This document shows positions 3,967-55,733 of a stretch of DNA of 64,000 bases, one piece after another (position 1 is the stretch's first letter; each line of letters begins with the position of its first letter). The stretch is from an uncultured Candidatus Saccharibacteria bacterium (GTDB lineage Bacteria > Patescibacteriota > Minisyncoccia > Phycocordibacterales > UBA5272). Both the position numbers and the translations under genes were made by a program. The stretch is from positions 44,335-108,334 of the forward strand of contig CAYWEW010000002.1 in NCBI GenBank assembly GCA_964457775.1, read 5' to 3'. The notes beneath the pieces are model-generated. The model ran no database searches. It was not told where the DNA came from and was given only the letters and a program-made list of their open reading frames with translations.

Positions 3967-4381
3967 ACTCTTCTATTGCTTCACGTAATGCGAGATGCGA
4001 CAACACCGAACAATGGTATTTTCTATCTGGAAGTCCTCCTAATCTATCAATAATTGCTTCTGGTGTTAATCTTTTTGCTTTACTCAGTTCCATTCCTCCT
4101 TTTTCTGTCACCATAACTGACATCATTGATGTTGAAGCAATAGCAGACGCACAACCAAATGTCCTCCACTTACATTCTGTAATAACTTTTTTATCCTTAT
4201 CTACTTTTACCCAAACCGCCATCATGTCACCACAAAGTGGGCTACCTGTTACCCCAAGCCCGTCAGCGACATAGTCCTTATCATCAACTAAAATATTTTG
4301 TGGACGAAAAAAATGCTCTTTTACAGCATCACTATATAGCCAGTTTTCTCCATCACATTTATTATATTCATTTATTGTCAT
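3953..4381 (-). CDS. iscU: Fe-S cluster assembly scaffold, NifU/IscU family
   Basis: Conserved Cys scaffold residues (GSPLCGDMM ... FGCASAIASTS ... HCSVLS), 142 aa. Overlaps the upstream cysteine desulfurase by 4 nt. Confidence 0.85.
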   Translation of the reverse strand: MTINEYNKCDGENWLYSDAVKEHFFRPQNILVDDKDYVADGLGVTGSPLCGDMMAVWVKVDKDKKVITECKWRTFGCASAIASTSMMSVMVTEKGGMELSKAKRLTPEAIIDRLGGLPDRKYHCSVLSHLALREAIEEYERK

Positions 4382-5604
4382 AGATTTATAGTTAATGATG
4401 ACATACTTTTTAGTCTTTTTACAATACCCGATAATTCATTTACGAAGTAATCCAAATCCTCTTTTGTCGTATCCTTTCCTAAAGAAATACGAATACTGCC
4501 GTGCACAAGATTAGATTTAGAATCAGCAGATTCTCGACTGTGCTGTAAATTAATTGCATGTAATACATGTGAAACCTCCAAATCATGCGATGAGCAAGCT
4601 GAGCCGGTAGACACTTGTATTCCAATTTCATCCAACATAAGAACAATTGATTCACCTTCTATAGATGGAATAGAGATGTGCACATTGTTTGGCAAACGAT
4701 TAATTGGGTGCCCGTTTAAAACTATATCATTAATATATTCTCTTAAAATTTTTATCAAATAATCACGAAGTGCAGTTAGCCTTTCGAACTCTTTCACTCT
4801 TTTTTCTTCAACCATTCTAAGTGATTCACACATTCCAACAATAAGTGGAACACTTTCAGTTCCGCTACGTAGACCCTGCTCTTGTCCACCACCAAAAATA
4901 ATTGGTTCAATATTTATATTTTCTTTTTTATATAGTACCCCTATACCTTTGGGACCGTATATTTTGGACGCATTGATTGTCATTAAATCGACTCCGAGAG
5001 TTTGTACATTTATTGGTAATTGTCCTGCTGCTTGGCATGCATCGGTGTGGAAGTATGGACAACCATTAGCTATTGGCATTTGGCTTTTTGTTTTATTAAT
5101 TCTATTTCCTAGTTCTACTATTGGTTGTATAGTCCCTATTTCATTATTCGCATACATCACAGAAACTAGAATCGTTTTATCCGTTATCATTTTCATAACT
5201 TCATCCACATTAACTATTCCATATTCATCTACTGGAATATATTCCAAGACAAAACCCTCTTTTTCTAATTGCTTCGCTGAATCTAATACTGCCTTGTGCT
5301 CAATTGATGAAATAAGAATATGGTTCCCGTGTTTTTTATTATCTCTAGCAATACCTAAAATTGCCAAGTTATCCGACTCTGTTCCCGAACCAGTAAAAAT
5401 AATTTCAGAAGATTTAGCTCCAATGATTTCGGCAACACCCTGCCTTGCACGCTCTATAATATGCTTTGATTTTCTCCCAATTTCGTAGACGGACGACGGA
5501 TTACCATATTCACCACCAAAATATGGCAACATTTTTTCTAGCACCCGCATATCAATAGGTGTAGTTGCAGCATTATCTAAATAAATTAGACGTTTCATTT
5601 CCAT
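4378..5604 (-). CDS. iscS: cysteine desulfurase (NifS/IscS class V aminotransferase)
   Basis: PLP-fold hallmarks including SSIEHKAVLD and the active-site SxGSAC (STGSACSS). Confidence 0.88.
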   Translation of the reverse strand: MEMKRLIYLDNAATTPIDMRVLEKMLPYFGGEYGNPSSVYEIGRKSKHIIERARQGVAEIIGAKSSEIIFTGSGTESDNLAILGIARDNKKHGNHILISSIEHKAVLDSAKQLEKEGFVLEYIPVDEYGIVNVDEVMKMITDKTILVSVMYANNEIGTIQPIVELGNRINKTKSQMPIANGCPYFHTDACQAAGQLPINVQTLGVDLMTINASKIYGPKGIGVLYKKENINIEPIIFGGGQEQGLRSGTESVPLIVGMCESLRMVEEKRVKEFERLTALRDYLIKILREYINDIVLNGHPINRLPNNVHISIPSIEGESIVLMLDEIGIQVSTGSACSSHDLEVSHVLHAINLQHSRESADSKSNLVHGSIRISLGKDTTKEDLDYFVNELSGIVKRLKSMSSLTINL

Positions 5605-5624
5605 ATTTTATAGCATGACATATT

Positions 5625-6314
5625 TTATCGAACTCCACAAAACTGAACATACTTGGTGAGGTTTTTTTGAAATTCAGCAAATTCTTCATCATTATATGTG
5701 GTTTTTTTGATAAATTGAGGGTTAAGAATTTTAGACGGGATAAATTTTTGTAAATAATATTTTTTAGCTCCTTTGATTTCTTTTGCAATTTCTTCGATGT
5801 CTTCCGGCGATAACATCACTTTCAAAACAGTTGTACGGAACTCATACTCCACATCTGAATTCATAATAAGAGATATACTTTTCTTAATTGATTCTATATC
5901 GACAGGACGAGAAACTGTCTGACTATATTTTGCAAGTGGAGACTTTACATCCATTGCTATATAGTCCACTAATTTTTTATCAATAGCTTGTTTCAAAAAA
6001 TCTGGATTGGTGCCATTTGAATCTAACTTAACAAGGAAACCTCTATCTTTAACTTCCTTCATGAAGGAGAGAAGTTTGTCCCCATGTATAGTTGGCTCTC
6101 CCCCTGTTATAACTACACCATCTAGCATTTTCTTTCTACTCTCAATAAATTCCAAAATTTCTTTTTCAGAAAATCTATGTGTCACTGTTTCATCAACTAA
6201 TTCTGGATTGTGGCAATATGGACACCTAAAATTACATCCAACTGTATAGACCATACAAGCTATCTTTCCTGGATAGTCTATAAGTGTACATTTTTCAAAT
6301 CCTCCGAATTCCAT
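5625..6314 (-). CDS. nrdG: anaerobic ribonucleoside-triphosphate reductase activating protein (radical SAM)
   Basis: CNFRCPYCHN radical-SAM CxxxCxxC motif in a ~230-aa protein directly downstream of nrdD. Confidence 0.88.
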   Translation of the reverse strand: MEFGGFEKCTLIDYPGKIACMVYTVGCNFRCPYCHNPELVDETVTHRFSEKEILEFIESRKKMLDGVVITGGEPTIHGDKLLSFMKEVKDRGFLVKLDSNGTNPDFLKQAIDKKLVDYIAMDVKSPLAKYSQTVSRPVDIESIKKSISLIMNSDVEYEFRTTVLKVMLSPEDIEEIAKEIKGAKKYYLQKFIPSKILNPQFIKKTTYNDEEFAEFQKNLTKYVQFCGVR

Positions 6315-6315
6315 T

Positions 6316-8493
6316 TTATTTTATCTTAACCGAAACAGTGACGGGTTCTTCAACGCATACTGGGGATACTTCTCCTGGAATATACATTTCACGAATATCA
6401 TACTCTGCTTTTTTCGCATCATTCCATTGACTAACAGGACGCAAGTAACCAACAACACGTGAATATACTTCGCATGTACTTGTACAAGTTGGGCAAGAAA
6501 AATGTTCGCCTGAAATATAACCATGTGTACCACAAACACTGAAAGTTGGTGTGATTGTAAAATATGGCAATCTATAATTCTCACAAATCTTCTTCACTAA
6601 ATTCGGCACAGCCTTGTAATCAGTCATACGTTCACCTATGAAAAGATGTATAACTGTTCCACCGGTATACTTCGTCTGTAGACCATCTTGGATATCAAGT
6701 GTCTCAATAATGTCTTGTGTATAGTTAACTGGAAGATGTGATGAGTTAGTATAAAATGGCTGAGCCCCCAACTTAACTTCTGGTTCGTTTGCAACAATAA
6801 TATCTGGATACATCTTCTTGTCACGAGCAGCGAATCTGTATGTTACCCCTTCTGCTGGAGTTGCTTCCAAGTTATATAAGTTACCTGTTTCTTGCTGATA
6901 TGAAATCAGTCGATGACGCATGTGATCTAGAACTTCACCAGCCAATACTCTACCATCTTCTGTACCAATATCTTCACCTATAAGATTAAGAGCTACTTCA
7001 TTCATACCAATGAGTCCAATTGTAGAGAAATGGTTTTTCCAATATTCACCAAAACCTTTTTTGATATTTCTTAAATAGAACTTTGTATATGGGTACAGAT
7101 TAGCCTCTGTTAATCTTTCAATAAGTTTTCGCTTAATTTCTAGACTTTCCTGTGCGATGTCCATTTGCTTATCAAGTTTTTCATAGAAGTCTGCTTTTGC
7201 TTTTACAAGATCATCTTTATTCTTACTCTTCGCAACATATGAAAGTCTAGGTAAGTTAATAGTCACTACTCCAACTGAGCCAGTTAGAGCGTTCGCACCG
7301 AATAGTCCACCTCCACGACGATCTAGTTCTTCTAGGTCAAGACGAAGACGGCAACACATTGATCGAGTATCTTCTGGTTTCATATCTGAATTAACAAAGT
7401 TACTGAAATATGGAATACCGTACTTTGCTGTGATTTCCCAAAGGCCCTTCAATTTTTCATTTTCCCAGTTAAAATCTTTTGTAATATTAACTGTCGGAAT
7501 TGGGAATGAAAATACTTTTCCGGTTGCGTCCCCTTCTGCCATAACTTCAAAAAAAGCTTCGTTCAACATATCCATTTCAGCTTGGAAATCTCCATACTTT
7601 TCCTTTTGTTGCTTGCCTCCAATAATTACAGGCATATCTTTGAAGTTTGGTGAAGGATTAAGATCAAGAGTAATGTTTGAGAATGGTGTTTGGAAACCAA
7701 CACGAGTTGGCACATTCATATTGAACACAAACTCTTGAATGGATTGTTTCACTTCCTTTTGTGTAAGATTGTCATAACGAATAAATGGCGCGAGTAATGT
7801 ATCGAAGTTAGAAAAAGCAATAGCTCCAGCTGCTTCACCTTGCATTGTGTACATAAAATTCACAATCTGACCAATAGCTGTACGAAAGTGCTTTGGTGGA
7901 GCTGATTCAATTTTATCGGTAACACCTTTAAATCCTTCAGTGAGAAGATCCATCAAATCCCAACCAACACAATAAATTGCAAGTGTGCCAAGGTCATGTA
8001 TATGAATATCTCCATTTTCATATGAGTCACGAATTTCCTTTGGATAAATTTTGTTCAACCAATATGTCTTACTAACTTCTGAGAATAGATAATTGTTCAG
8101 TCCTTGAAGAGAGTATCCCATATTACTATTCTCTTTTACCTGCCAGTCTAATTTATCAAGATAATTATCAACAAGACCGAGAGATGCCTTGGTTGCGAAC
8201 GCTCTCATCTCTGCGTGCTGTTCACGATAAACAATATATGCCTTAGCAGTTTGCTTATATCTAGAATGCATCAAAATCTGCTCAACAGCATCTTGTATTT
8301 GCTCAACATTAGGGAAATTACTGTATTCTTTATTTTCTATATATGCGACTATTTGCTCAGTTAAATCTCGGGCCTCATCATCTCTAAATTCTCCTGTTGC
8401 CTTACCAGCTTTTGCAACTGCGTGAACAATCTTTTCCTTGTCAAAAACTTCTGTTTTTCCGTCTCTTTTTGTGATTTTTGTGAGTTTAGCCAT
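6316..8493 (-). CDS. nrdD: anaerobic (class III) ribonucleoside-triphosphate reductase with N-terminal ATP-cone
   Basis: ATP-cone N-terminus (KRDGKTEVFDKEKI), a C-terminal Zn-ribbon (CPTCTSTC) and a glycyl-radical motif (RVVGY). 725 aa. Confidence 0.92.
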   Translation of the reverse strand: MAKLTKITKRDGKTEVFDKEKIVHAVAKAGKATGEFRDDEARDLTEQIVAYIENKEYSNFPNVEQIQDAVEQILMHSRYKQTAKAYIVYREQHAEMRAFATKASLGLVDNYLDKLDWQVKENSNMGYSLQGLNNYLFSEVSKTYWLNKIYPKEIRDSYENGDIHIHDLGTLAIYCVGWDLMDLLTEGFKGVTDKIESAPPKHFRTAIGQIVNFMYTMQGEAAGAIAFSNFDTLLAPFIRYDNLTQKEVKQSIQEFVFNMNVPTRVGFQTPFSNITLDLNPSPNFKDMPVIIGGKQQKEKYGDFQAEMDMLNEAFFEVMAEGDATGKVFSFPIPTVNITKDFNWENEKLKGLWEITAKYGIPYFSNFVNSDMKPEDTRSMCCRLRLDLEELDRRGGGLFGANALTGSVGVVTINLPRLSYVAKSKNKDDLVKAKADFYEKLDKQMDIAQESLEIKRKLIERLTEANLYPYTKFYLRNIKKGFGEYWKNHFSTIGLIGMNEVALNLIGEDIGTEDGRVLAGEVLDHMRHRLISYQQETGNLYNLEATPAEGVTYRFAARDKKMYPDIIVANEPEVKLGAQPFYTNSSHLPVNYTQDIIETLDIQDGLQTKYTGGTVIHLFIGERMTDYKAVPNLVKKICENYRLPYFTITPTFSVCGTHGYISGEHFSCPTCTSTCEVYSRVVGYLRPVSQWNDAKKAEYDIREMYIPGEVSPVCVEEPVTVSVKIK

Positions 8494-8861
8494 ATATAAA
8501 ACTTAAATAAATAATAAAGGTTATACTACTAATTATGCTTCGATTTTGATACTCTCGCAACCAAAAAAAGTGGATATAAATTTACCTTACAAGACAATAT
8601 TTTATTTAGAAAAAGTATTTACAAAATCAAAAATTGGTTTATTGAAAAGAGAGGGTTTTTAGGAAGTCACAAGGTACAGGTCACAAATCTGCCTCGCTTT
8701 GCTCGAAGCAGATTCGCGACCCCTAATCGATTCCTCACGCAAATGACGCAGGTCATTTCAGGAATCGGTCACCTCGTCTCGTTTTATGAGTACATAAAAC
8801 ATGAGACTCCTCGACCCCTATTCGATTCCTCACGCAAATGACGCAGGTCATTTGCTGTGGT

Positions 8862-8916
8862 CCCGCAAAATACAAAATCCTACAAATTTAATTTGTAGGA
8901 TTTTGTATTTTGCGGG
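8862..8916. terminator. 26-bp perfect palindrome adjacent to the 3' end of tRNA-Trp
   Basis: cccgcaaaatacaaaatcctacaaa-ttta-atttgtaggattttgtattttgcggg. Shares the TTTTGTATTT arm motif with the hairpin at 19762-19805. Confidence 0.6.
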
Positions 8917-8983
8917 CCCACGAGGAATCGAACCTCGACCAACGGATTTGGAGGCCGTTGTTCTGCCACTAAACTATAGGCCC
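8913..8983 (-). tRNA. trnW: tRNA-Trp (anticodon CCA); CCA 3' end not encoded
   Basis: Reverse complement GGGCCTATAGTTTAGTGGCAGAACAACGGCCTCCAAATCCGTTGGTCGAGGTTCGATTCCTCGTGGGCCC. Acceptor GGGCCTA/TGGGCCC has one G-U pair. D arm GTTT/GAAC. Anticodon loop CTCCAAA gives CCA. T arm CGAGG-TTCGATT-CCTCG. The 31-39 pair is a C/U mismatch. The discriminator is followed by CA, not CCA. Confidence 0.75.
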
Positions 8984-9038
8984 GTGTGCTCACTATTCTA
9001 ACATATAATTTGTAAATTATATCGAAAAGAAAAAGAAG

Positions 9039-9086
9039 TAAAATAAAAACCTGTGCAATGCACAGGTTTTTATTTTACTTCTTTGT
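9039..9086. terminator. 21-bp palindrome overlapping the rpmG stop; terminator for rpmG
   Basis: gaagtaaaataaaaacctgtgc-aat-gcacaggtttttattttacttc. Confidence 0.6.
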
Positions 9087-9236
9087 TTCCTTAAAAGTAA
9101 TATGCTTACGAAGTTTCTTTGAATACTTCTTAAGTTCAATTTTACGAGTTACAAGCTTCTTGTTCTTTGCAGTCCAATAAACTTCCCCTGTTTCCTTATT
9201 CTTTAACTGTATGAGACGGTCTTGTGCTTTTGACAT
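9075..9236 (-). CDS. rpmG: 50S ribosomal protein L33
   Basis: 53-aa ORF MSKAQDRLIQLKNKETGEVYWTAKNKKLVTRKIELKKYSKKLRKHITFKETKK. The C-terminus matches the L33 signature (LELKKY...RKH..FKETK). Below the ORF-track length cut-off. Confidence 0.8.
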   Translation of the reverse strand: MSKAQDRLIQLKNKETGEVYWTAKNKKLVTRKIELKKYSKKLRKHITFKETKK

Positions 9237-9263
9237 AGTTACAGGATTATACGCTTTTTTTGG

Positions 9264-10667
9264 CTAAATTGCAAGGTTTTCACTAAAATACTTTACTAAA
9301 TCAGCAATTGGAACACGCACTTGTTCCATAGTATCCCTATCACGCACAGTTACAGCATTATCAGTCAAAGTATCGAAATCTACAGTTACACAGTACGGTG
9401 TACCGATTTCGTCCTGTCTACGATATCTTTTACCGATTGATTGAGTATCATCATATTCTACAAAAAACTTTTTAGATAGTGTTTTCCAAATTTCTTTCGC
9501 AGGACCTGACAACTCTTCTTTCTTTGATAATGGCAACACTGCGACTTTAACTGGAGAAAGACGTTTATCGAATTTAAGAACTACACGAGTTTCGTCGTTT
9601 ACGATTTCTTCAGTATAAGCGTTATCAATAAAAGCTAGTGTCATACGTGCTACACCAACTGATGTTTCTACGATATGCGGCACAAATCTTTCTTTTGTCG
9701 CTTCATCAAAATATGACAAATCTGTTCCTGAGAATTTACTATGTTGAGTCAAATCAAAATCCCCCCTTGCATGTATTCCTTCCATTTCTTTAAATCCTCC
9801 CAACATCGCATAATTATATTCAATATCATATGCATCGGACGCATAATGTGCTAGCTTCTCATGTTTGAACCAATTTAATTTATTCTCTGGGATACCATAA
9901 TCAAGGTAAAAATTCCATCTATCCTTGTGCCATCCTTCAAAAATATCCCCTGTTTGTGATGGATGATGAAAGTATTGCATTTCCATTTGCTCGAACTCAC
10001 GGGTACGGAATACGAATTGCTTAGCTACAATTTCATTACGAAAAGCTTTACCAATTTGTGCAATACCAAATGGTAGCTTTGGGTGTAGCGAGTCGATGGT
10101 ATTTTTATATTCCAAATAAATACCACCACATGTTTCTGGTCTAAGATATACAACATTTTCTTCAGACAATGCGTCCGTTGGTGAGCCGAGATTAGACTTC
10201 ACCATAAGTGAGAAGACTTTCGCCTCTGTCACATCTGCACTAGAACAGTTTGGACAAGCAAGTTTTTTGTCGGCTCGCAATTTATCTAATTCTTGATTAA
10301 TAAATTCAAGTGGTTGTTTATCAGCATTAATACCGAAACCTTCAAGAAGATGATCTGCTCGAAAGCGACTCTTACATTTCTTGCAATCTATTTGTGGGTC
10401 ATTGAATCCATCGACGTGCCCGGACGCTTTCCAAGCCATTGGATGCATAAAAATAGCGCTGTCTAACAATACAACGTCCATACGTTCTTGTGCAATACTC
10501 TTTTGCCACGCATTTTTTACGTTATTAAGAAGAAGTGTCCCATAATGTCCATAATCATACACACCAGAGAACCCGCCGTAAATTTCAGATGATGCAAAAA
10601 TAAATCCCCTCCTTTTACAAAGAGAGACTATTGCTTCCATACGAGCTTGAGAGTCATTTGTATTCAT
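9264..10667 (-). CDS. glyQS: glycine--tRNA ligase (dimeric class II type)
   Basis: SSEIYGGFSGVYDYGHYG N-terminal motif, class II core (FRNEI, RTREFEQMEMQYF) and an anticodon-binding C-terminus. 467 aa. Confidence 0.9.
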   Translation of the reverse strand: MNTNDSQARMEAIVSLCKRRGFIFASSEIYGGFSGVYDYGHYGTLLLNNVKNAWQKSIAQERMDVVLLDSAIFMHPMAWKASGHVDGFNDPQIDCKKCKSRFRADHLLEGFGINADKQPLEFINQELDKLRADKKLACPNCSSADVTEAKVFSLMVKSNLGSPTDALSEENVVYLRPETCGGIYLEYKNTIDSLHPKLPFGIAQIGKAFRNEIVAKQFVFRTREFEQMEMQYFHHPSQTGDIFEGWHKDRWNFYLDYGIPENKLNWFKHEKLAHYASDAYDIEYNYAMLGGFKEMEGIHARGDFDLTQHSKFSGTDLSYFDEATKERFVPHIVETSVGVARMTLAFIDNAYTEEIVNDETRVVLKFDKRLSPVKVAVLPLSKKEELSGPAKEIWKTLSKKFFVEYDDTQSIGKRYRRQDEIGTPYCVTVDFDTLTDNAVTVRDRDTMEQVRVPIADLVKYFSENLAI

Positions 10668-10746: not shown

Positions 10747-11007
10747 CTAATTTGTCCCCAATTCTCCAAAAATACTACCGAATAAACTAAGAACACCACC
10801 AACTGAAAGAATTATAAAAAGTCCGACCATCCCCCACAATAAATGGTCTTTACCTGTATTCTTCTCTGCAGGATTTCTCATATCATAAATAAACTTTGCT
10901 ACACCATACAAAAAATAAATAAAAGTTATGGCTGCAACCAATTGATATAGTGGGCTGAAAATTTCAGTAACTATTTTTCCTAATATAACATCAGCATTTT
11001 TTTCCAT
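10747..11007 (-). CDS. small two-helix membrane protein, TrbC/VirB2-like (T4SS-pilin-like) topology
   Basis: Two hydrophobic helices separated by a charged loop (DMRNPAEKNTGKDH). 86 aa. Same layout as the neighbouring paralogs. Confidence 0.5.
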   Translation of the reverse strand: MEKNADVILGKIVTEIFSPLYQLVAAITFIYFLYGVAKFIYDMRNPAEKNTGKDHLLWGMVGLFIILSVGGVLSLFGSIFGELGTN

Positions 11008-11077
11008 ATAATTTTAGTATACCTTAATTGGTGGATAAGAGTTTTAATATGATCTACATAGGTTAGTCATATGTAAA

Positions 11078-11518
11078 CTATTTCATTTTTGGCATTTCAA
11101 GAGCTGGTATACTGCCGCCAACTCCTGTCCCTAAAATGTTGGCCATGAGTCCAATAATTCCCCAAACAGAAACCATAACGAATAGAGCTAGTATAGAATA
11201 ACCCATACCTTTCAACCCCTCTTCTCTTTTTCCTGGACTTTCATCCCCTTTCCAAATATATTGAACCAAATACCAAAAGAACGCTAACAGTCCGAGACCA
11301 ATCATAAGTACACCAAGTCTAGATACAGCTAATTGAGCTAAACCAATAAGTCCAAGAACAGGGCCATTGTTGAATCCTAACCCTTGTGAATTACTAACGC
11401 TGATGGAAAAAGGTTTACCCCCGACAGTGCCACCAACACTTCCTCCGATAACTTGTGCCTGTGCAAGAACAAGACTACTTAGAACTACAATGTACATGCT
11501 GATTATTATTTTTTTCAT
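11078..11518 (-). CDS. secreted TrbC/VirB2-like pilin-family membrane protein, paralog 1
   Basis: Signal peptide, Gly-rich segment, then TM1 - IWKGDESPGKREEG loop - TM2 (LLAFFWYLVQYIWKGDE...GYSILALFVMVSVWGIIGL). Confidence 0.6.
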   Translation of the reverse strand: MKKIIISMYIVVLSSLVLAQAQVIGGSVGGTVGGKPFSISVSNSQGLGFNNGPVLGLIGLAQLAVSRLGVLMIGLGLLAFFWYLVQYIWKGDESPGKREEGLKGMGYSILALFVMVSVWGIIGLMANILGTGVGGSIPALEMPKMK

Positions 11519-11647
11519 ATTTATTTAAGTATAACTTAGTTTTTAAAGAGTGTCTAAAATAATAATGTTAGTATCTAGTGTGTTGGTAGTTAGGAAGTGT
11601 ATAGACAAAAAACCCCACATCATGTGGAGTTTTTGTAATATATATAA

Positions 11648-12070
11648 TTATCGATTTGGAGTCGGAATTGCCGGAATTGGAACTGCTCCACCTTGACCGA
11701 TACCTAACATTCCACCTAAAGCTCCGATAATACCCCAAATTGAAACCATTACGAATATTGCAAGAATAGAATAACCCATTCCTTTAATACCGAGATTCTT
11801 TTCATCAGCACTATCTCCTCCTTTTACAATAAACTTAATAAGGAACCAGAAGAATGCAACTACTGCTACACCAACAGCAAAAATACCTAAACGAGAGACG
11901 ATGTCTTGTGCAAGCCCAAGAAGACTAAGTAGTGGTCCGCCATTTACTTGTCCCTGTACAGCGTTTTGTCCGATACTTAAAGTACCCCCATTTACACCAA
12001 TACTCACCTGAGCAGAAGCAATCATAATACTACCTGCAACTAACGAAATTAAAGATAAAGCTTTTTTCAT
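11648..12070 (-). CDS. secreted TrbC/VirB2-like pilin-family membrane protein, paralog 2
   Basis: Same architecture and near-identical core (VVAFFWFLIKFIVKGGDSADEKNLGIKGMGYSILAIFVMVSIWGIIGA). Start moved to the internal Met (MKKALSLISLVAG signal peptide). The ORF track extends to 12160. Confidence 0.6.
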   Translation of the reverse strand: MKKALSLISLVAGSIMIASAQVSIGVNGGTLSIGQNAVQGQVNGGPLLSLLGLAQDIVSRLGIFAVGVAVVAFFWFLIKFIVKGGDSADEKNLGIKGMGYSILAIFVMVSIWGIIGALGGMLGIGQGGAVPIPAIPTPNR

Positions 12071-12283
12071 ATATATATTATTATCCTTTAAGTATACCTT
12101 GACGTTTGGACTTTGCAAGGATAGATGGGGATAAGGGTAGCATGTAGAAATTATAGCCAAAGAAAAAAGAGAGGCATCCTTACTCGCAGCATCGCGATTA
12201 AGGCAATGTGCGAGAGGAAAACCTCTCTTGTTGTGTCATTTACGTATGACTACGGATTTGATATGGTTGTCTCCAGTTGTTTA

Positions 12284-12613
12284 CTACTTTTCTCCCCATT
12301 TTTTGATTTGATCAATAATCTTTTTGAGCAAAAATACAAGAAAAAAGCCGAGCGCAATAACCATTACTATGCTGAACAAAACTTGAAGACCTTTTTGGTT
12401 GAAATTCAAGATGCGAATATGAGCATTATGCAGAGCATTTCCTGCATTTTGTGCACCATTCCCGATTGCACCTATTACTCCACTCACACCATTCATTATC
12501 CAATCAACCAAAGTAGGAAGAATCATGAGAAATATTGCCAACAGAAGCACGTAACCGAGAGCGGTTCCGAGTTTTTGGGGAAATGTTTTCTCTGCTTTAT
12601 TTTCTCCTGCCAT
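12284..12613 (-). CDS. small membrane protein (109 aa), hypothetical
   Basis: Two or three predicted TM helices. Embedded in the pilin-like cluster. The antisense ORF 12125..12667 is rejected. Confidence 0.45.
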   Translation of the reverse strand: MAGENKAEKTFPQKLGTALGYVLLLAIFLMILPTLVDWIMNGVSGVIGAIGNGAQNAGNALHNAHIRILNFNQKGLQVLFSIVMVIALGFFLVFLLKKIIDQIKKWGEK

Positions 12614-12635
12614 GATGCGTTCTCCTTTCGAGAGA

Positions 12636-13451
12636 TTAGTTTATATTGGCGTAACCACCATTTTTGATGAGGACTAAAACTGGCTTACCTCTGTGCTTAT
12701 CAAGAAACTCGCGACAGAGTGAAACTGTTTCGGTGTTACCTCCAGTGTTACCACATTTGTAATATTTACCTGAGTAAACATCATTTCTGTAGTTGTTGCC
12801 TGAAATATCTTCGACCGCAACAAGGAGCTGATACTTTTCAGCATCAAACTTTTTTACCGCAGTTTCGATTTGGAACAAAGCACAACCAGAGGTTAAATGC
12901 AGGGACTGCCCGGCACCCAATTGCTGAATACTAGCATTTGCAATACCTGTATCCCTCTCTTCAGGTGTAGAACAATTGAACATTGACCCATACACAACTG
13001 TTTTTGAATCAGGTACACTTGCTGACTCATTTACATCTGAAGGTTTTGGCAATAATGAGTTCGTTACTGCTTTTATTACTTGAGGTTGCTCTTGCTTTGA
13101 CGAAAGATAATCAGCAACGAATTTTTGCGTGAACATAAAAACAACACACAAAACAAGAAACAAACCAATATACATAAAAATCTTGTATTCTTCTCTCGTG
13201 AAAAATGGTTCTTTGTCAGATGAGTCGGGCCCTTTACCGCCTCCACCACCTGGCCCACGTGAGCCACCTTTTCCACCACCGCCCGGGCCATCATCACCTG
13301 CTCTTGCAGAAGGTTTGGTTGAATCTGGCGTTTGAGGTGTTTGGGGAATAAAACTTGGAGGCATTTCTGGACTCGCGGCGGCTGCTCTTGTTTCGCTGAT
13401 TTGTTTCAAAAAAGCCTCTTCGTTTGGACTTCTTACGGATTTACCGGACAT
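12636..13451 (-). CDS. exported protein: Gly/Pro-rich low-complexity N-terminus, one TM helix, C-terminal globular domain (possible Cys-His peptidase or cell-wall hydrolase fold)
   Basis: GPGGGGKGGSRGPGGGGGKGPD tract, TM helix IFMYIGLFLVLCVVFMF, and a C-terminal domain with Cys-containing motifs (TSGCALFQ, KCGN, SLCREF). The hydrolase assignment is an inference, not a recognised family hit. Confidence 0.5.
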   Translation of the reverse strand: MSGKSVRSPNEEAFLKQISETRAAAASPEMPPSFIPQTPQTPDSTKPSARAGDDGPGGGGKGGSRGPGGGGGKGPDSSDKEPFFTREEYKIFMYIGLFLVLCVVFMFTQKFVADYLSSKQEQPQVIKAVTNSLLPKPSDVNESASVPDSKTVVYGSMFNCSTPEERDTGIANASIQQLGAGQSLHLTSGCALFQIETAVKKFDAEKYQLLVAVEDISGNNYRNDVYSGKYYKCGNTGGNTETVSLCREFLDKHRGKPVLVLIKNGGYANIN

Positions 13452-13565
13452 TTAATTACTCCTTCAAAAAAGTTTTGGAATTTGTTCACATAAACATGTT
13501 AAACAACATCTAAACAAACGCTACACTATATTTATGTAATTGTCAATAAAAGTTTAGCTTTGTTA

Positions 13566-14312
13566 TTATTCTGAACAAACACCATCAGAACCCATAGCTC
13601 CACCTTTTATTTCACAATTACATGTTTCTACAGAACTTCCATTATCAACGCAAGTTTGAAGAGCTGATTTAGTTCCCTTTACTGAATTATTACTACCTGT
13701 GGAACAAGAATTGTCAGTAAGATTCCAAATACCTCCACTTGCTTCACAATTACATGTTTCTACAGAACTTCCATTATCAATACAAGTTTGAAGAGCTGAT
13801 TTAGTTACTCCACCAGTATTATTATTACCTGTAGAATTAGTTACACCTCCAGTATTATTATTACCAGCAGACTGTGCACCATTTTGAGCAGAAGGAACTG
13901 TCCCTGTTCTAAAATTGAAACTTGGTATATCAATAGTAGTTACATCTTTTCCTTGGAATAGAATACTTTGGCCCAGTTTTATTATTCCATAAACAGAGAA
14001 CATAACGAAAAGTGCGATAAGCCCCCATTTCATAAATTCACCACCAACTTGTACCCCTTTTCCATCACCTTGTCTCTTAGCCCAGATGTACTCGATAATG
14101 CCGTAGAAAAAGGCAAGTAAGGCTACTGAAAGAGCAAGTGTGCCTAAAGCTTTTACAACTGTTGAAGTAAATAATTGAATAAGTATCGCAGTTGCCCCTA
14201 TTCCTGTAATTGCGTCCTGCACGGTTACTGTACCTGTTACAGCAAAAGTGACTAGTGGTGTAAGAATTATACTAGTAAAAATGACAGCTTTTATTATAGG
14301 TGATTTTTTCAT
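13566..14312 (-). CDS. TrbC/VirB2-like pilin-family membrane protein with a Cys-rich C-terminal tandem-repeat extension, paralog 3
   Basis: Core LALSVALLAFFYGIIEYIWAKRQGDGKG...WGLIALFVMFSVYGIIKLGQSILFQGK is about 70% identical to paralog 4. The C-terminus carries two near-identical repeats (...GTKSALQTCVDNGSSVETCNC...). Start moved to the internal Met. The ORF track extends to 14354. Confidence 0.6.
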   Translation of the reverse strand: MKKSPIIKAVIFTSIILTPLVTFAVTGTVTVQDAITGIGATAILIQLFTSTVVKALGTLALSVALLAFFYGIIEYIWAKRQGDGKGVQVGGEFMKWGLIALFVMFSVYGIIKLGQSILFQGKDVTTIDIPSFNFRTGTVPSAQNGAQSAGNNNTGGVTNSTGNNNTGGVTKSALQTCIDNGSSVETCNCEASGGIWNLTDNSCSTGSNNSVKGTKSALQTCVDNGSSVETCNCEIKGGAMGSDGVCSE

Positions 14313-14358
14313 AAATATAATTAAAGTGTACACTATAAGGCTTTTAAAATGCAACGAA

Positions 14359-14748
14359 CTACTTTAGTTGAATGTTTGGAATATTAATTGTATTAACTTC
14401 TTTCCCTTGAAAAAGAATACTCTGGCCAAGATTTATAATTCCATAAACTGAGAACATAACAAACAGTGCAATGAGTCCCCAAACCATGAACTTATTCCCA
14501 TCTCCTAGAGCCTTTTCGTCTCCTTTTCTTCTTGCCCAAATATATTCAATAAGTCCATACAAAAATGCTAGCAAACCTAGCGCAAGAAAAAGGCCACTTA
14601 ATGCGCTTATTACACTATTTGTAAAAGTACTAACTAAAGATGCAAAAGTTTCTGAACCAGAACTTATCCCCGCGAAGGAAACTGTTGGGCAAATAATAAA
14701 TAATATAAAAATGATTGCTTGTTTGATGTTATTTTTTTTCATATACAT
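14359..14748 (-). CDS. TrbC/VirB2-like pilin-family membrane protein, paralog 4
   Basis: Signal peptide ending SFA^G, TM1 LFLALGLLAFLYGLIEY, loop IWARRKGDEKALGDGNKF, TM2 MVWGLIALFVMFSVYGIINLG. Confidence 0.6.
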   Translation of the reverse strand: MYMKKNNIKQAIIFILFIICPTVSFAGISSGSETFASLVSTFTNSVISALSGLFLALGLLAFLYGLIEYIWARRKGDEKALGDGNKFMVWGLIALFVMFSVYGIINLGQSILFQGKEVNTINIPNIQLK

Positions 14749-14753
14749 TATAT

Positions 14754-15890
14754 TTAAATTATTTTATTAATAAATTTAATATTTTCTTTAATTACTAACT
14801 CAGTTACTGGTATAACCATTGAGGTTGATGGAACTATTTTTTCTACTGACCCTCTAAGCGCAAGAAGGAATCCTTGTATAACAAAAACAACGAATGTTGA
14901 TATAACTGCCCACATAAGTAATTTATGTGTCTTCATTAACTTCTCAGGAGCTCCTTGTGCCAAAACATAATTAAACCCGGTCCACACCCATATAGCAATT
15001 AATGCAGGGTAAATAAAGAACTTTAAAACTAACTTAAGGCCATTCAAAATAAAATCGTACAAACTACAAACGCCGAGCGGGTTAGGTAGTCCAGCAGTAC
15101 CACATGATGTTGGCGTTGGTGCAGTGTTTGAGGTTGATGTTGATACAGGAGTTGGTGTTGGTGTTGGTGTTGGTGCAGGAGTTGGTGTTGGTTGAACTAC
15201 TGCAGGTAACTCTGGCAACAATTCTACGCAATAATTTGTATAACATGCCCCGTTTTTATTATCATCAGTTAAACAAGATCTACCCGTCCCTGCACTTCCA
15301 CCACAATTACCAATCGGGACTTGTGATCCGACAGTCATAATTTCTGAACATTGACTTGATCCAGTGCAAAAACCAGCTTTGTCATCATTAGTTATACAGG
15401 GATTACCTTGTGGCTTATTTGGGCAAGCATTTTTTGCTATTGGGGCTGCATATGCTCGAGTAATTGTCATTTCTGAAGAAATTGACTTTAGGAGTTCAAG
15501 AGGGAAGTCTTTGACACCTAAATACTTAAGCATGGCCATAAATATTCCACCGAATAATGCTACGACAATTATAAAGCCTAATATTGCTTGTGTAACTTTA
15601 CCTATAGCTTCTTTGTAAGCATTAGCATTCCCTTGTGCCAACTGATAATACGCAACAACGAATCTATACATAATAAAAATTACAAGAAGTGGAAGACCGA
15701 GTGCAATAATGGTACTAAAAATACCTTTGAATATTATTGCTAAATCCTTTACCCCACATTTTGTTGCTAAAGTAGAACCACACAAAGTATCTCCTGAAAT
15801 TGATGTTTGAGCATACGCGTCTATTCCATTAAAAGCAACAATAAAGAAAAATACAGTTAGGGTAAGTGTTAAAAAATGGTGACGCTTCAT
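14754..15890 (-). CDS. large membrane protein with two pilin-like two-helix modules flanking a Cys-rich extracellular domain and a Pro-Thr linker
   Basis: The N-terminal module has loop AQGNANAYKEA and the C-terminal module has loop AQGAPEK. Between them lie about 14 Cys (CPNKPQGNPC...CTGSSQC...CGGSAGTGRSC...CYTNYC) and PTPTPAPTPTPTPTPVSTSTS. Confidence 0.55.
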   Translation of the reverse strand: MKRHHFLTLTLTVFFFIVAFNGIDAYAQTSISGDTLCGSTLATKCGVKDLAIIFKGIFSTIIALGLPLLVIFIMYRFVVAYYQLAQGNANAYKEAIGKVTQAILGFIIVVALFGGIFMAMLKYLGVKDFPLELLKSISSEMTITRAYAAPIAKNACPNKPQGNPCITNDDKAGFCTGSSQCSEIMTVGSQVPIGNCGGSAGTGRSCLTDDNKNGACYTNYCVELLPELPAVVQPTPTPAPTPTPTPTPVSTSTSNTAPTPTSCGTAGLPNPLGVCSLYDFILNGLKLVLKFFIYPALIAIWVWTGFNYVLAQGAPEKLMKTHKLLMWAVISTFVVFVIQGFLLALRGSVEKIVPSTSMVIPVTELVIKENIKFINKII

Positions 15891-16002: not shown

Positions 16003-17304
16003 TTACTTTATTGGAGTATACAGGTCTTGAAGACGAGCCACAAATGAGTTGGCGGCATCGGTTACTCCTTGTCTATTATTTAGAACATCAGAAATCATGA
16101 TTGAAATATAGTTAGTAGATTTATCAGAATAAGTATCATACCAACCACGAGCAACTAGCATACTACTAGCTATTACAGAACTTAACCCTGGAGTTGCAGC
16201 ATAGTTACGAAAAGCAGGTACTCCTCCGACAATTGCTGCAATAGTTGGAGATATACCCCCTCCTGCGAATTGCCCCTCAACAACAAAAGCTACACTTGGA
16301 TTCTTCGAGGTTTTTAAGGTTGCTATACCGTACATACGCATACCTGTAGCAAAAGTATTATTCCCTCTTGATTGAGGAAATCCTGTCATCTCAATCTCAG
16401 CTCTTGGGTTACGAGCGCGCAATGTTTCTAATTCTCCAGAATAACCAATATACATGGCGAGCTTTTCTGATACGAACATATCATCTGCCTTACCTTGAAA
16501 TTCATTCCATGAATAAGTACTTTGTGTTGGGTCAGCAAATTGTGTGAAGAATTGTGTTACTGATGTTAAAGGATAAATACTACTTTCTTCTGTAACAGGC
16601 TCATTCGCAATTACACTCATATACATTTCACCCATTTGATTATACTGAGGAAGTACTGGTATTTGCCCCAACTGACCAACAATTGCCATAATAATATCTT
16701 TAGCATATGGAGTATTCGGTGCACCGAGCGCTATACCTGACTCAGTGAACTGACCCTTGCTATTTTTTTGTGTAAGAACTGGAACCATTTTCACAACATC
16801 GTCCCAATCAGCTGGCGGATTAATAATTGAATGTTTTGAAAATAATGTACGATTATAAAAAAGCACCATTGGTTCAATCGACACAGGAAGAGCGAGCGCT
16901 CCATATGGCGTATAAAAAACAGAAGCGCCTCCTACATAACCATCCTTGAATTCCTTTTCACCTAGTGAAGCGACTGGAATTGGATAAATTCTTGAAGCCT
17001 GTGAAAGTATTGTTTGATATGGTGCCAAAATCAAATCAGGACCATTACCATTGGCAAGAGCCTCTAATAATTTCTGATTAAATACTTCTTCACGAACCTC
17101 CCGATAAACAACACGGTACGTTTTAGCTTGAGGATTGAACTCTTGAACTATTGCATTCATTGGACCTTCTGGTAGTGTTCCCCAAATAAGCACTTCACCT
17201 TGTGGTGTGTCTTTTTTATTTCCAATATCAATTTTACCTGAAAAAATAAGCATCGCGAAAACTGCCGCAAAAATACCAACACCAAGTAAAATTTTGGATA
17301 CCAT
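16003..17304 (-). CDS. ABC transporter extracellular solute-binding protein (family 1, sugar-type)
   Basis: Signal/anchor MVSKILLGVGIFAAVFAML followed by a ~410-aa periplasmic-binding-protein fold. The ORF track start (17328) adds 8 codons. Confidence 0.65.
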   Translation of the reverse strand: MVSKILLGVGIFAAVFAMLIFSGKIDIGNKKDTPQGEVLIWGTLPEGPMNAIVQEFNPQAKTYRVVYREVREEVFNQKLLEALANGNGPDLILAPYQTILSQASRIYPIPVASLGEKEFKDGYVGGASVFYTPYGALALPVSIEPMVLFYNRTLFSKHSIINPPADWDDVVKMVPVLTQKNSKGQFTESGIALGAPNTPYAKDIIMAIVGQLGQIPVLPQYNQMGEMYMSVIANEPVTEESSIYPLTSVTQFFTQFADPTQSTYSWNEFQGKADDMFVSEKLAMYIGYSGELETLRARNPRAEIEMTGFPQSRGNNTFATGMRMYGIATLKTSKNPSVAFVVEGQFAGGGISPTIAAIVGGVPAFRNYAATPGLSSVIASSMLVARGWYDTYSDKSTNYISIMISDVLNNRQGVTDAANSFVARLQDLYTPIK

Positions 17305-17342: not shown

Positions 17343-17456
17343 AGTCTAAAGTCAAAAGTGGGGACAAAATACAATGCAAGCACTTCGTGGTTGCATTGTA
17401 TTTACTTTATGGACTTTATAAACTTTACACTTTATGGACTTTTGACTAACTAATCG
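17343..17456. repeat. MITE-like palindromic element R1 (GTCAAAAGT...TTATGGACTTTTGAC family)
   Basis: Arms gtcaaaagtgggg ... ctttatggacttttgactaactaatcgc. The right arm ends at the stop codon of the upstream gene. It shares the arms and the flank gacta(a/t)ctaatc(c)gc with R2. Confidence 0.5.
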
Positions 17457-17967
17457 CTATAAATGCATAATGATAACTTCCCGCTTGTAATCTTTTTAGT
17501 ATTCTAAAATTATTATCTACAACCAGCTTTTCTGCATACAACTCATCAATTATATGATCTCTGTGTGGACCAAGACCTCCGTGACTATCGCTCCATTCTA
17601 CAATTAGTAACTGCCCTTCTGGTTTTAAAATTTTTGAAATATGTAAAAGTAGCGAATTAATGTTACCTAATTGAAAAAGTACATTAGACACCACAACCGC
17701 ATCCAAACTATATCCATCAATTGGAATATGTTGCTCAACATCAGCCCAAAGCATATCAACATTTTGTATACCTCTCTTCTCAAGAGTTCCTGCAAGTGTA
17801 TGCAATGCTTCACGGTGTACATCAACCGCATAAACATGACCCATTTCTCCAACTTCTTGTGCAAGAGCAATGGTGTATACACCAGTTCCACAACCAATAT
17901 CTGCGACTCTATCACCTGGTTTCAAATATAATTCACGAATAAGATGTTCTGGAGTTAGGAATGACAT
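17446..17967 (-). CDS. class I SAM-dependent methyltransferase
   Basis: Motif I VADIGCGTGVYTIALA and an acidic-loop motif. 173 aa. Confidence 0.8.
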   Translation of the reverse strand: MSFLTPEHLIRELYLKPGDRVADIGCGTGVYTIALAQEVGEMGHVYAVDVHREALHTLAGTLEKRGIQNVDMLWADVEQHIPIDGYSLDAVVVSNVLFQLGNINSLLLHISKILKPEGQLLIVEWSDSHGGLGPHRDHIIDELYAEKLVVDNNFRILKRLQAGSYHYAFIAIS

Positions 17968-35243: not shown

Positions 35244-35846
35244 TCAACGAAGACAAAGCCCTCTTAGGGCAAGTAGCTCCCTAATTTCATTTACGCCTTT
35301 ACGGCCTAGATTCGGAATACCGAGAAGGTCCTCACCACTCTTCTTCAGTAAATCACCAATAGTAAAAATACTTTCTGCTTTAAGACAGTTGGAAGTACGA
35401 ACAGTCAAATCCAAGCGGTCAACAGGTTCACTATTTTCTTTTGGTTGTGTAATCAGATTTAACCTTAAAACTTCAGCTATTAACCTAGAAATTTCTGCTT
35501 CACAAGAGTTAACTCGCTTACGAAGAGCTTGAAATTGGGGATCTTTCTTTGACCAAAACAGATCTTCCAACATCATGTTTATGGGTTGAGCACGCACATG
35601 ATATTTAAGTTGACGAATCGATTTATTGCGAATCTGAGAGATTCGTTGACTAGATAGATTAAAATCAATACCAAGCTGTACTAAAGTTTTATCTACACAA
35701 TCAAGACCGTAATATGTCAAAACTATCTCTGCGCTTCTTGGTGTTAGAGAATCCTTAATCCACGGTACGATAGCCTTCTCAATATCTTCCGACAAACCAG
35801 GAATAACAAGACCAATCTTCACAAAAAACGCCTCTTTCTTATTCAT
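35244..35846 (-). CDS. fusion protein: sigma-70 region 4 (HTH) + RNA polymerase alpha-subunit C-terminal domain
   Basis: [43 protein letters not shown] matches sigma region 4.2 (REREVLRLRFGL..TLEEVG..FGVTRERIRQIEAKALRKL). [53 protein letters not shown] matches alpha-CTD ([53 protein letters not shown]). Confidence 0.65.
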
Positions 35847-40054: not shown

Positions 40055-40408
40055 TTACCTTACCAGTTTTTTCTTTTTTGGTTTTGGTGGTTTAGTAACA
40101 GACAAAGCCATATTAAACCAATCGGATAATAATTCTCTATTTTCATACACTTCGGCTGGCACAGAAAAATAATAAAGATATGTTTCTTCCCCTTTTCTCA
40201 TATATGAAAATTGTTTTGATCCTCTTTCGGCATACCATCCTAAAATTTCATCAGCTCCTTTAAAATATAATTCATCTTTTTCTATGATTGCAAATGCTCT
40301 ACCTTCATAATACAAAATATAAGCACCCATCATAGCTCTAAATGTTACAGGTATAGCTTCTCCAAAAACATCATAAACTATATATTCAAGAAATGGAGTT
40401 GTTTTCAT
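40055..40408 (-). CDS. TfoX/Sxy N-terminal-domain protein (stand-alone)
   Basis: MMGAYILYYEGRAFAIIEKDELYFKGAD pattern of the TfoX N-domain. Lys-rich C-terminus. 117 aa. Confidence 0.5.
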   Translation of the reverse strand: MKTTPFLEYIVYDVFGEAIPVTFRAMMGAYILYYEGRAFAIIEKDELYFKGADEILGWYAERGSKQFSYMRKGEETYLYYFSVPAEVYENRELLSDWFNMALSVTKPPKPKKKKLVR

Positions 40409-46518: not shown

Positions 46519-48033
46519 ATGCCTCCAAATGATCAAGAGAAAATTGGACTTTTCGTAAAAAAACTTCGTGAAGAGCGTGGAATGACACAAGGAGATTTTG
46601 CAAAATCACTCAAAACTTCTCAATCGGCTGTTGCTCGCATTGAGTCGGGAAATCAGAATGTAACTATTGACCAACTCATGAAAATGGGTGAAGTTCTTAA
46701 ACATAATATTGTAACCCTTCAAGATACTATTGATTTTGAAGTTGACGGTGGTCGTAAATTATCTGGAAGCATAGAAACTAACACTTCAAAAAATGGTGCG
46801 ATTAATATGATGGTGGCAGCACTTGTTAATTCTGGTACCACAACTTTAAGAGACATACCGCACATAGAGGAGGTGCACAGGTACAAAGAATTACTTGAAA
46901 GTGTCGGTGTGAAAATACGTTGGGTTCATAATGATACAGCTCTAGAAATCAAACCGCCGAAGAAACTTTTATTTTCGAAAATGGATAAAGACGTCGCTGT
47001 GCGTATAAGATCATTTACTTTTGCTGGGGCGTTTATTCATTATACAAACTCATTCAACCTCCCTCACTCAGGTGGGTGTAAAATGGGCGAAAGAACTGTC
47101 GCTTCACACAAATATGCTTTGGAGTATTTGGGGGTACACATAGACACCAAGCAAAACTACTACACTATTTCTCATAAAAACTTACACTCTGGCACCATTC
47201 CCTTGTATGAATCATCAGACACAGGTGCTATTACTGCAATTATTGCAGCTTCAAGAATAGAAGGCGCTACTACCATAAAATTTGCTCCGCCGAATTATCA
47301 AGTTCAAGATGTGTGTTTCTTACTTGAAAGGTTTGGTATTAAAATTGATGGAATTGGTTCTACAACCCTTGTTGTCCATGGTAAAAAAGACATAAATGTT
47401 GATGCTGAACACTATAATAGTGAAGATCCAATTGAGAGTATGTTTTTTATTTCGGCCGGAATAGTAACAAAATCAAAGCTTACCATTACACGTTGCCCAA
47501 AAGAATTTCTAACTCTTGAACTGGAAAAATTGAAGCGTATGGGGCTTATGTTTAAATTATCAAAAGAATATCTTGCTAAAAATGGAAGAACTGTATTGTT
47601 TGATATTACTATTTCCCCTTCTAAGTTAATTGCACCTCATGAAAAAATCCACACTCAACCTTTCCCTGGAATCAACAACGACAATCTTCCGTTCTTTGTG
47701 CCAATCTGTTGCTTTGCAGAAGGTCAGACACTTATCCATGATTGGACATGGGAGAATCGCGCTATTTATTTTACAGAATTAAACCGTCTTGGTGCAGATA
47801 TAAAGCTTCTAGACCCACACCGAGCATTAGTCACTGGTGTAAAGAAATTAAGAGGCTCACAAATTGTCTCCCCTCCAGCACTTCGCCCTACGGCAATTAT
47901 TTTAATCACAATGCTTGCATGTGAAGGAAAATCACTTCTTCGCAATGTATATTCTATTAAGCGTGGATATGCAGATATTGCGGAGCGCCTCAATTCAATA
48001 GGGGCAAAAATTACTGTTATTAGAGGAGTGTAG
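46519..48033 (+). CDS. murA: XRE-family HTH domain fused to a UDP-N-acetylglucosamine 1-carboxyvinyltransferase (MurA) homolog
   Basis: N-terminal ~60 aa LREERGMTQGDFAKSLKTSQSAVARIESGNQNVTIDQL (XRE HTH). The rest aligns with MurA: LSGSIETNTSKNGAINMMVAALV vs [24 protein letters not shown], active-site GGCKMGERTV vs GGCTIGARPV, WENRAIYFTELNRLGA vs FENRFMHVPELSRMGA, IKRGYADIAERLNSIGAKI vs IDRGYERIEDKLRALGANI. Confidence 0.7.
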   Translation: MPPNDQEKIGLFVKKLREERGMTQGDFAKSLKTSQSAVARIESGNQNVTIDQLMKMGEVLKHNIVTLQDTIDFEVDGGRKLSGSIETNTSKNGAINMMVAALVNSGTTTLRDIPHIEEVHRYKELLESVGVKIRWVHNDTALEIKPPKKLLFSKMDKDVAVRIRSFTFAGAFIHYTNSFNLPHSGGCKMGERTVASHKYALEYLGVHIDTKQNYYTISHKNLHSGTIPLYESSDTGAITAIIAASRIEGATTIKFAPPNYQVQDVCFLLERFGIKIDGIGSTTLVVHGKKDINVDAEHYNSEDPIESMFFISAGIVTKSKLTITRCPKEFLTLELEKLKRMGLMFKLSKEYLAKNGRTVLFDITISPSKLIAPHEKIHTQPFPGINNDNLPFFVPICCFAEGQTLIHDWTWENRAIYFTELNRLGADIKLLDPHRALVTGVKKLRGSQIVSPPALRPTAIILITMLACEGKSLLRNVYSIKRGYADIAERLNSIGAKITVIRGV

Positions 48034-51011: not shown

Positions 51012-51013
51012 AT

Positions 51014-55730: not shown

Positions 55731-55733
55731 ATA

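Follow-up and report, generated by a model that had tools for sequence, protein, structure and literature searches.

Tandem arrays of small pilin-like genes have been described in Patescibacteria. In Saccharibacteria, a six-gene pilin array in the T4SS (type IV secretion system) cluster of S. epibionticum is essential (Wang et al. 2023), and two pilins of this species match both the T4SS_pilin family (PF18895) and the TrbC/VirB2 family (PF04956; Table S2 of that study). This is the sole Patescibacteria species tested genetically, and the function of its essential T4SS and pilin array has been described as completely unknown. A later survey reported 441 arrays of 2-11 VirB2-like pilins, with a within-array identity that averages 25% and reaches at most 54% (Quinonero-Coronel et al. 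2025; PMC12102498). The same study found VirB4 in 2417 of 3035 Patescibacteria assemblies (80%), often near dnaA, while only 1135 of 1948 assemblies had a pilin close to virB4. Relaxases are seldom found in these bacteria, and a 2025 review still treats a possible Gram-positive-type pilus in them as an open question. Here we describe a pilin array in a 64-kb stretch of contig CAYWEW010000002.1 (64,000 nucleotides, hereafter the window). The ORF (open reading frame) list of the window places eight minus-strand genes, all in the same orientation, at 10747-15890; six of them encode pilins with seven PF18895 modules between them, and two non-pilin genes interrupt the series. With six pilin genes in a Patescibacteria host, the locus falls within the definition of a VirB2-like pilin array given in PMC12102498. 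Since arrays of 2-11 such genes have been published in Patescibacteria (Wang et al. 2023; Quinonero-Coronel et al. 2025), its kind is already known. We consider it fairly likely that the array encodes a heteromeric set of T4SS-type pilins, forming a surface filament or display scaffold, that is assembled by a T4SS encoded elsewhere and displays host-contact domains. What the analysis shows is the family membership, topology features, class structure, synteny and passenger fusions.

The first transcribed gene of the array, g378 (14754-15890), encodes a 378-aa tandem double pilin. It is followed by g129 (14359-14742; 127 aa from the called start), a pilin with a signal peptide, two transmembrane (TM) helices and no tail, and by g247 (13566-14312; 248 aa), a pilin with a C-terminal tail. 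The two non-pilin genes come next: g271 (12636-13451) encodes a bitopic protein of 271 aa and g109 (12284-12613) a small two-TM protein of 109 aa. The array continues with g143 (11648-12070; 140 aa), which has a signal peptide, a Gly-rich N-terminal segment and two TM helices, and g146 (11078-11518; 146 aa), and ends with g86 (10747-11007; 86 aa), which consists of two TM helices without a signal peptide. The true start codons of g143, g247 and g129 are likely those at 12070, 14312 and 14742, respectively. We propose that the pilins represent four old subunit classes that are not interchangeable, namely D (g378), A (g129 and g247), B (g143 and g146) and C (g86). Class D is the first gene and is a tandem fusion here. 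Class A combines a conserved core with a hypervariable tail that is Cys-rich or bears a domain, class B has the Gly-rich N-terminal segment, and class C is minimal and highly conserved.

Judged by sequence, the array pilins are members of the T4SS_pilin family. The original prediction, made from the DNA letters alone, had proposed such an assignment and a search with the Pfam models as its check, and PF18895 was recovered on all six proteins and seven modules. Two of them, g86 (29.6 bits) and g146 (26.7 bits), score at or above the gathering threshold of 26.6 bits, while g143 (24.8 bits), g378 (21.0 bits, in two stretches), g129 (20.6 bits) and g247 (10.3 bits) fall below it. PF18895 is the top or sole Pfam match in five of the six; the match of g247 is marginal only (E 0.8). 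A hidden Markov model (HMM) that we built from the pilins matches all six with E-values of 1e-22 to 1e-33 (1e-32 for g247), and the positional orthologues of the array pilins in other genomes score 27-38 bits on PF18895. The two-TM hairpin with a short loop, usually preceded by a signal peptide, that characterizes the family is found throughout, with g86 lacking the signal peptide. The family is large: with a class A profile, 8852 representative proteins were retrieved at E<=1e-3, of which 4686 remained at the stricter cut-off of E<=1e-10.

The prediction had also named TrbC/VirB2, and this model did not fit: no window protein matches PF04956 at E<=1. Matches to it were confined to two orthologues in related loci (L007 and L120), at 20-22 bits (E 2e-4 and 5e-4) against a threshold of 27.9. 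Kinship to canonical VirB2 is supported by architecture and by bridging hits. The NCBIfam model NF045849, which describes the Mbov_0395 pilin-like proteins of Mycoplasma integrative conjugative elements (ICEs), matches g86 with an E-value of 1.7e-5 and 24 bits, below the curated threshold of 40, and there is a weak match (E 0.078) to DUF4134 of Bacteroides.

We assessed topology using hydropathy plots and N-terminal motifs (AxA-type sites). A Sec-type N-terminus, which combines a KK/KR n-region with a hydrophobic core and an AxA-like site, is present in g146, g143, g247, g129 and g378, and the cleavage-site motifs in these five proteins are AQA, ASA, TFA, SFA and AYA. The signal peptide is followed by two hydrophobic helices, or by four in g378. 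The predicted shared architecture of signal peptide, TM1, charged loop and TM2 thus holds for the 146, 140, 248, 127 and 378 aa proteins but not for g86, and the TM1-TM2 loops are only weakly basic, with a net charge of 0 to +2.

The high core identity expected among the paralogs was borne out by pairwise local alignments of the hairpin cores, scored against 200 shuffles. The cores of g129 and g247 share 54 of 82 residues (66%, z=40), and those of g146 and g143 are 57% identical (z=40). Cross-pairs range from 37 to 52% identity (z 8-19), and g86 is 23-36% identical to the other pilins (z 6-15). The C-terminal module of g378 resembles g129 (33%, z=7), and the N-terminal module shows no significant pairwise similarity to the array hairpins in the same shuffle test. 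The tail of g247 consists of a Gly/Asn-rich linker and two 24-aa repeats with three Cys each, and holds eight Cys; the repeat reads 'KSALQTC[IV]DNGSSVETCNCE', so the duplicated Cys-containing C-terminal repeat noted earlier in this gene is indeed there.

The double pilin g378 is the most elaborate member of the array. It comprises, in order, a signal peptide, a Cys pair, hairpin 1, a beta-rich domain with eight Cys, a PT linker, a second Cys pair and hairpin 2. An AlphaFold2 (AF2) model built from 68 homologues has a mean predicted local distance difference test score (pLDDT) of 72.8. It contains a signal helix, hairpin 1 with helices at residues 47-85 and 91-123, a beta-rich domain at 150-230 (pLDDT 87-93), and hairpin 2 with helices at 277-310 and 315-352, with the disordered PT linker between the domain and hairpin 2. 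The original prediction of two pilin modules around a Cys-rich extracellular domain and a (PT)n linker is in agreement with this, although its count of 14 Cys is too high: the protein has 12, eight of them in two 4-Cys repeats of the central domain. The remaining two pairs each precede a hairpin, C37/C45 (invariant in the family) and C263/C275. A total of 131 relatives were scored for the g378 family, with lengths of 238-645 aa, and the 120 best listed all have E<=2e-48. Both hairpins are strongly conserved among these relatives, and the middle or C-terminal insert is variable. In distant lineages, the first array gene is a single hairpin that is related only to the C-terminal module of g378, so that the tandem form is a derived fusion.

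To place the array in a wider context, metagenome contigs were searched with the class D alignment, and the 80 loci obtained (L numbers) were annotated using our own HMM and phmmer seeds. Arrays in these loci hold 3-7 genes, most often four or five. Gene order is shared, class by class, among L005, L007, L089, L091, L093 and L175: gyrA, an S-adenosylmethionine (SAM)-dependent methyltransferase, a solute-binding protein (SBP) of the SBP_bac_1/8 type, class D, one or more class A pilins, a bitopic protein of about 270-300 aa and/or small two-TM proteins, one or more class B pilins, class C and glycyl-tRNA synthetase (GlyRS). Compared with L175, the closest relative, identity is 96% for GyrA, 89% for GlyRS, 89% for the methyltransferase and 82% for the SBP. 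The pilins follow at 88% (g86), 74% (g143), 68% (g378), 65% (g146), 62% (g129) and 61% (g247). As the most conserved pilin, g86 is on a par with GlyRS and is still 64% identical to its counterpart in L091. Positional orthologues can be paired individually, for example g143 with L091_14715 and g146 with L091_15119, and range in identity from 61 to 82% for g129, 53 to 74% for g143 and 51 to 65% for g146.

Since every paralog can be matched to a separate positional orthologue in other species, we conclude from these comparisons that the paralogs are old, position-specific and differentiated orthologue classes rather than the product of a recent expansion. The fastest-evolving genes of the array are the two non-pilin genes. 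Within the pilins it is the C-terminal tails that vary, and the class A alignment shows a conserved TM1-loop-TM2 core. This pattern argues for a multi-subunit assembly and against both the expansion for antigenic variation and the diversification within the loop that had been suggested.

The same synteny bears on whether the array could belong to an integrated conjugative element and supply its pilus for DNA transfer, as the family names (T4SS_pilin, Mbov_0395 ICE pilin-like) would imply; nothing else in its favour was found. The flanking genes are housekeeping genes (gyrA, GlyRS, L33 and NrdD), which occur in the same order across species at 50-96% identity in those genes, and the base composition of the array is that of the surrounding window. 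Relaxase, VirD4, integrase and VirB4 genes are all absent nearby, and relaxases are rare in these bacteria. Because of the housekeeping synteny and the uniform GC content we reject this explanation, which we regard as very improbable. The array is a chromosomal, vertically inherited locus.

Extra domains are attached to the hairpins in several array members and their relatives. In L005 (5506-6579) and L007 (6315-7355), the class A orthologue is fused to a pair of PG_binding_1 repeats (E 1e-25 and 2.5e-30). The hairpin of other class A proteins is joined to hypervariable Gly/Pro/Thr linkers and small Cys knots, and none of 36 long class A relatives scanned with Pfam showed a C-terminal domain of a known family. 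In L120, a marine metagenome relative, the gene that separates the SBP from the pilin array (4176-9752) encodes a protein of 1858 aa with 26 Cys, an N-terminal anchor and a C-terminal T4SS_pilin hairpin. Passengers occur N-terminal to, between and C-terminal to hairpins. They would be extracellular, because both ends of the hairpin are predicted to lie outside, and this is consistent with their Cys content.

Such freedom in passenger position is also what would be expected if the hairpins were mere membrane anchors that display variable extracellular domains (Cys knots, peptidoglycan-binding repeats and giant adhesin-like regions) without polymerizing, and the PG_binding_1 fusions would suit attachment to a cell wall. 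Yet half of the pilins (g129, g146 and g86) are bare hairpins with nothing to display, g143 has only its short Gly-rich N-terminal segment, and g86 is still the most conserved of all. Moreover, 3-7 distinct hairpin genes have stayed together in a fixed order over deep divergence, which is more easily reconciled with a multi-subunit assembly. We therefore consider simple anchoring to be improbable.

The genes upstream of the array are closely coupled to it. A membrane-anchored protein of 433 aa (16003-17304, minus strand) lies upstream of g378 and matches SBP_bac_1 and SBP_bac_8 (E 4e-15 and 5e-14); its nearest solved relative is a sugar-type ABC (ATP-binding cassette) binding protein, 4qrz, which is distant (E 1.6e-4). 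Upstream of it, a class I SAM-dependent methyltransferase of 173 aa (17446-17967, minus strand) is the conserved first gene of the operon-like unit. It matches Methyltransf_31, Methyltransf_25 and Methyltransf_11 in Pfam, and its nearest solved relative is a generic SAM methyltransferase, 3dh0. Among the 46 loci with at least 1.5 kb of upstream sequence, 45 have an SBP immediately before the first pilin-like gene (44 plainly, and L140 with an overlapping ORF call). In the remaining locus, L121, a 1857-aa ORF (4074-9647) is found immediately upstream of the array, in the position that the 1858-aa protein holds in L120. The gap between SBP and array has a median of 4.5 nt and is often -4, -1 or +1 nt; it is 112 nt in the window. 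The methyltransferase is directly upstream of the SBP in 41 pairs, 40 of which are co-oriented and 16 of which overlap by 4 nt. No ABC permease (BPD_transp) or ATPase partner for the SBP was found in the window or in the syntenic loci.

This arrangement raises the question of whether the pilin-like proteins work with the SBP instead of with a T4SS. The hairpins and the orphan SBP, perhaps together with the methyltransferase, would then form an envelope complex, an oligomeric membrane pore or platform that captures host-derived molecules and imports them, and 'pilin' would describe ancestry only. The 1-nt gaps and stop/start overlaps between SBP and array, the lack of both an ABC permease or ATPase near the SBP and a VirB4 nearby, and the strong conservation of classes C and D, as expected of a fixed complex, all speak for such an arrangement. 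However, the locus contains no linked component that could energize import, and the PF18895 proteins of Saccharibacteria are found inside the essential T4SS cluster, where there is no SBP. In reduced genomes, moreover, conserved gene order may persist without shared function. We think a T4SS-independent complex of this kind unlikely, if conceivable.

A related idea unites the methyltransferase, the SBP and the pilin array in one apparatus: a T4SS-type pilus or envelope conduit with host-binding domains such as peptidoglycan-binding repeats and Cys knots, in which the SBP captures a host-derived molecule at the base or the tip, with the pilins or their bound lipid as a possible substrate of the methyltransferase. 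We offer it as a speculation with low odds. If true, this single apparatus would be the nutrient-uptake device long postulated for the essential, unexplained T4SS of Patescibacteria.

Returning to the reading that we favour, a heteromeric T4SS-type pilin set, the following sequence of events can be envisaged. Five of the six pilins would be exported by Sec and cleaved by signal peptidase I, and g86 would be inserted without a cleaved signal. The mature product would be a helical hairpin of TM1, a short Gly/Asp/Lys loop and TM2, with the ends facing outward and the loop in the cytoplasm. A VirB4/VirB6-type machine from the Patescibacteria MPF-FATA-like clade, with its genes at another site in the genome, would pull the subunits out of the membrane and assemble them together as a heteromeric filament or an envelope-spanning scaffold. 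Hairpin cores would build the shaft, and the N-terminal, inserted or C-terminal passengers would be displayed outside for contact with the host cell. The co-transcribed membrane-anchored SBP and the SAM methyltransferase would be accessory factors to which we assign no role. Polymerization, the dependence on VirB4 and any part played by the SBP or the methyltransferase are steps that we infer.

Several observations weigh against this scheme. VirB4, VirD4 and VirB6 genes are all missing from the 64-kb window, as had been noted for the two ATPases, and from the 10 kb past the window start, which hold housekeeping genes only. About 50 related loci with 10-kb flanks likewise contain none of the three, nor any VirB4-sized ATPase; the unusually large ORFs there encode UvrD, IF2, BipA and iPGM. 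No direct link to solved pilins emerged either. The class A profile found no pilin among PDB sequences, an hhalign comparison of the profile A4 with A. tumefaciens VirB2 (sequence verified against PDB 8cue) gave a probability of 0.5%, and a Foldseek search of the PDB with the AF2 model of g378 returned no match. The PG_binding fusions could mean that the proteins are retained in the cell envelope and form no long pilus. Finally, the tight coupling to an SBP is without precedent in T4SS biology, and no T4SS pilus has so far been observed in Patescibacteria.

The two genes that interrupt the array encode non-pilin proteins. The protein g271 has a Gly-rich N-terminal region, which is probably cytoplasmic, an 'EPFFT' motif, one TM helix (residues 87-116) and a C-terminal domain of about 150 aa with four conserved Cys. 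The Gly-rich tract was correctly predicted for this gene, while a Cys-His hydrolase domain, considered as a candidate, is not supported: no Pfam or NCBIfam family, including CHAP and NlpC/P60, matches g271 at E<=1, and its three database relatives share the four Cys invariantly but no His. An AF2 model from three sequences reached a pLDDT of 48 and was unusable. The protein g109 consists of two helices with basic, charged termini, which suggest that it probably has both ends inside, the opposite orientation to the pilins. With this charge topology and z<=3.7 against the pilins, g109 was rejected as a seventh pilin. Similar small two-TM genes occupy its position in L005 and L007. Identity to the positional orthologues in L175 is 32% for g271 and 24% for g109, compared with 96% for GyrA, indicating that both genes evolve extremely fast.

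The host is placed by sequence among the ultra-small Patescibacteria, as a Paceibacteria-like bacterium; its GlyRS is 72% identical to that of metagenome-assembled genomes labelled Nomurabacteria, Uhrbacteria and UBA5272, all of them Patescibacteria, in keeping with the candidate phyla radiation (CPR) host that had been supposed. Downstream of the array are GlyRS and L33, followed by a strong bidirectional terminator. This is a perfect palindrome with a 20-bp stem after the L33 gene (9035-9081); it has a terminator score on either strand and is probably where the transcription unit of the array and GlyRS ends. A promoter and terminator scan gave fewer promoter-like sites than expected from shuffles. 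Two close relatives, L175 (16779-17159) and L093 (17970-18335), have an additional class B-like pilin gene after GlyRS; the window lacks this gene, and L33 directly follows GlyRS there. The window spans sequence that is divided between two contigs, JACCDT010985200.1 and JACCDT010011666.1, in NCBI assembly GCA_013565695.1. The array proteins are found on contigs of this assembly and in Logan assemblies of SRR10036056-65, and the longest recorded contig that carries them measures 109,365 bp.

Elsewhere in the window, a type IV pilus cluster at 50586-57458 includes PilB (55734-57458), PilC (54345-55730), an N_methyl prepilin (51014-51547) and a 798-aa protein without a Pfam match (51535-53931). 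A TfoX_N-domain protein of the competence-regulator type (40055-40408) is encoded beside an Nramp transporter and is consistent with the natural competence reported for Patescibacteria. Two proteins have unusual domain combinations: a 200-aa protein (35244-35846) joins Sigma70_r4 to an RNA polymerase alpha C-terminal domain, and another (46519-48033) fuses HTH_3 to an EPSP-synthase/MurA-type enzyme.

The comparisons above indicate that the pilin genes of a large Paceibacteria-like lineage are not interchangeable variants but encode 3-7 differentiated subunits in a fixed set. Extracellular domains, some of them peptidoglycan-binding, are built onto the hairpin as a scaffold, which would suit an epibiont that has to hold on to the wall of another cell. 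The 'uptake conduit' hypothesis gains a concrete, testable lead from the translational coupling of the array to an orphan SBP and a methyltransferase. Should this coupling reflect inherited gene order only, the array is one more example of the published class.

The closest described systems are the array of S. epibionticum ML1 (SEML1_0014-0019) and those of PMC12102498. Like the window array, these are chromosomal PF18895 arrays without a relaxase, composed of tandem, divergent small proteins with a signal peptide and two TM helices, with low within-array identity and at times with non-pilin interruptions. Unlike the ML1 array, which has no SBP, the window array lies outside a virB4 cluster and forms the downstream part of a methyltransferase-SBP-array unit beside gyrA. 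It further differs from the published Patescibacteria arrays in its tandem double-pilin fusion, its tail-bearing pilins and a maximum identity of 66% compared with 54%. The main text of PMC12102498 mentions neither an SBP, nor gyrA, nor a methyltransferase. As far as the accessible literature shows, the methyltransferase-SBP-array operon away from virB4, the orthologue classes, the tandem double pilin and the domain-bearing pilins have not been described before.

More distant parallels are found in the TrbC/VirB2 and TraA pilins of diderm T4SSs (T-pilus 8cue/8exh). In these, too, the signal peptide precedes an amphipathic N-terminal segment, and TM1, a short loop and TM2 come next; the length of about 70-100 residues after cleavage is likewise shared, and positional orthologues of the array proteins match PF04956 weakly. 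The window proteins differ in having no significant match to this family, a monoderm host, fused passengers on the hairpins and one member without a signal peptide. TrbC/VirB2 pilins are also encoded inside VirB/Trb T4SS clusters, whereas there are no adjacent virB genes here and no T4SS genes in the window or the related loci. The Mbov_0395-family (NF045849) and Bacteroides DUF4134 proteins are, like g86, two-TM hairpins of about 80 aa, but they are carried on mobile elements beside VirB4-like genes, and the window scores are sub-threshold. Multiple tandem VirB2-type genes also occur in Bartonella and Anaplasma. The VirB2 paralogs of those bacteria are thought to be recent, variable copies that serve antigenic variation, whereas the copies in the window represent old, position-specific orthologue classes.

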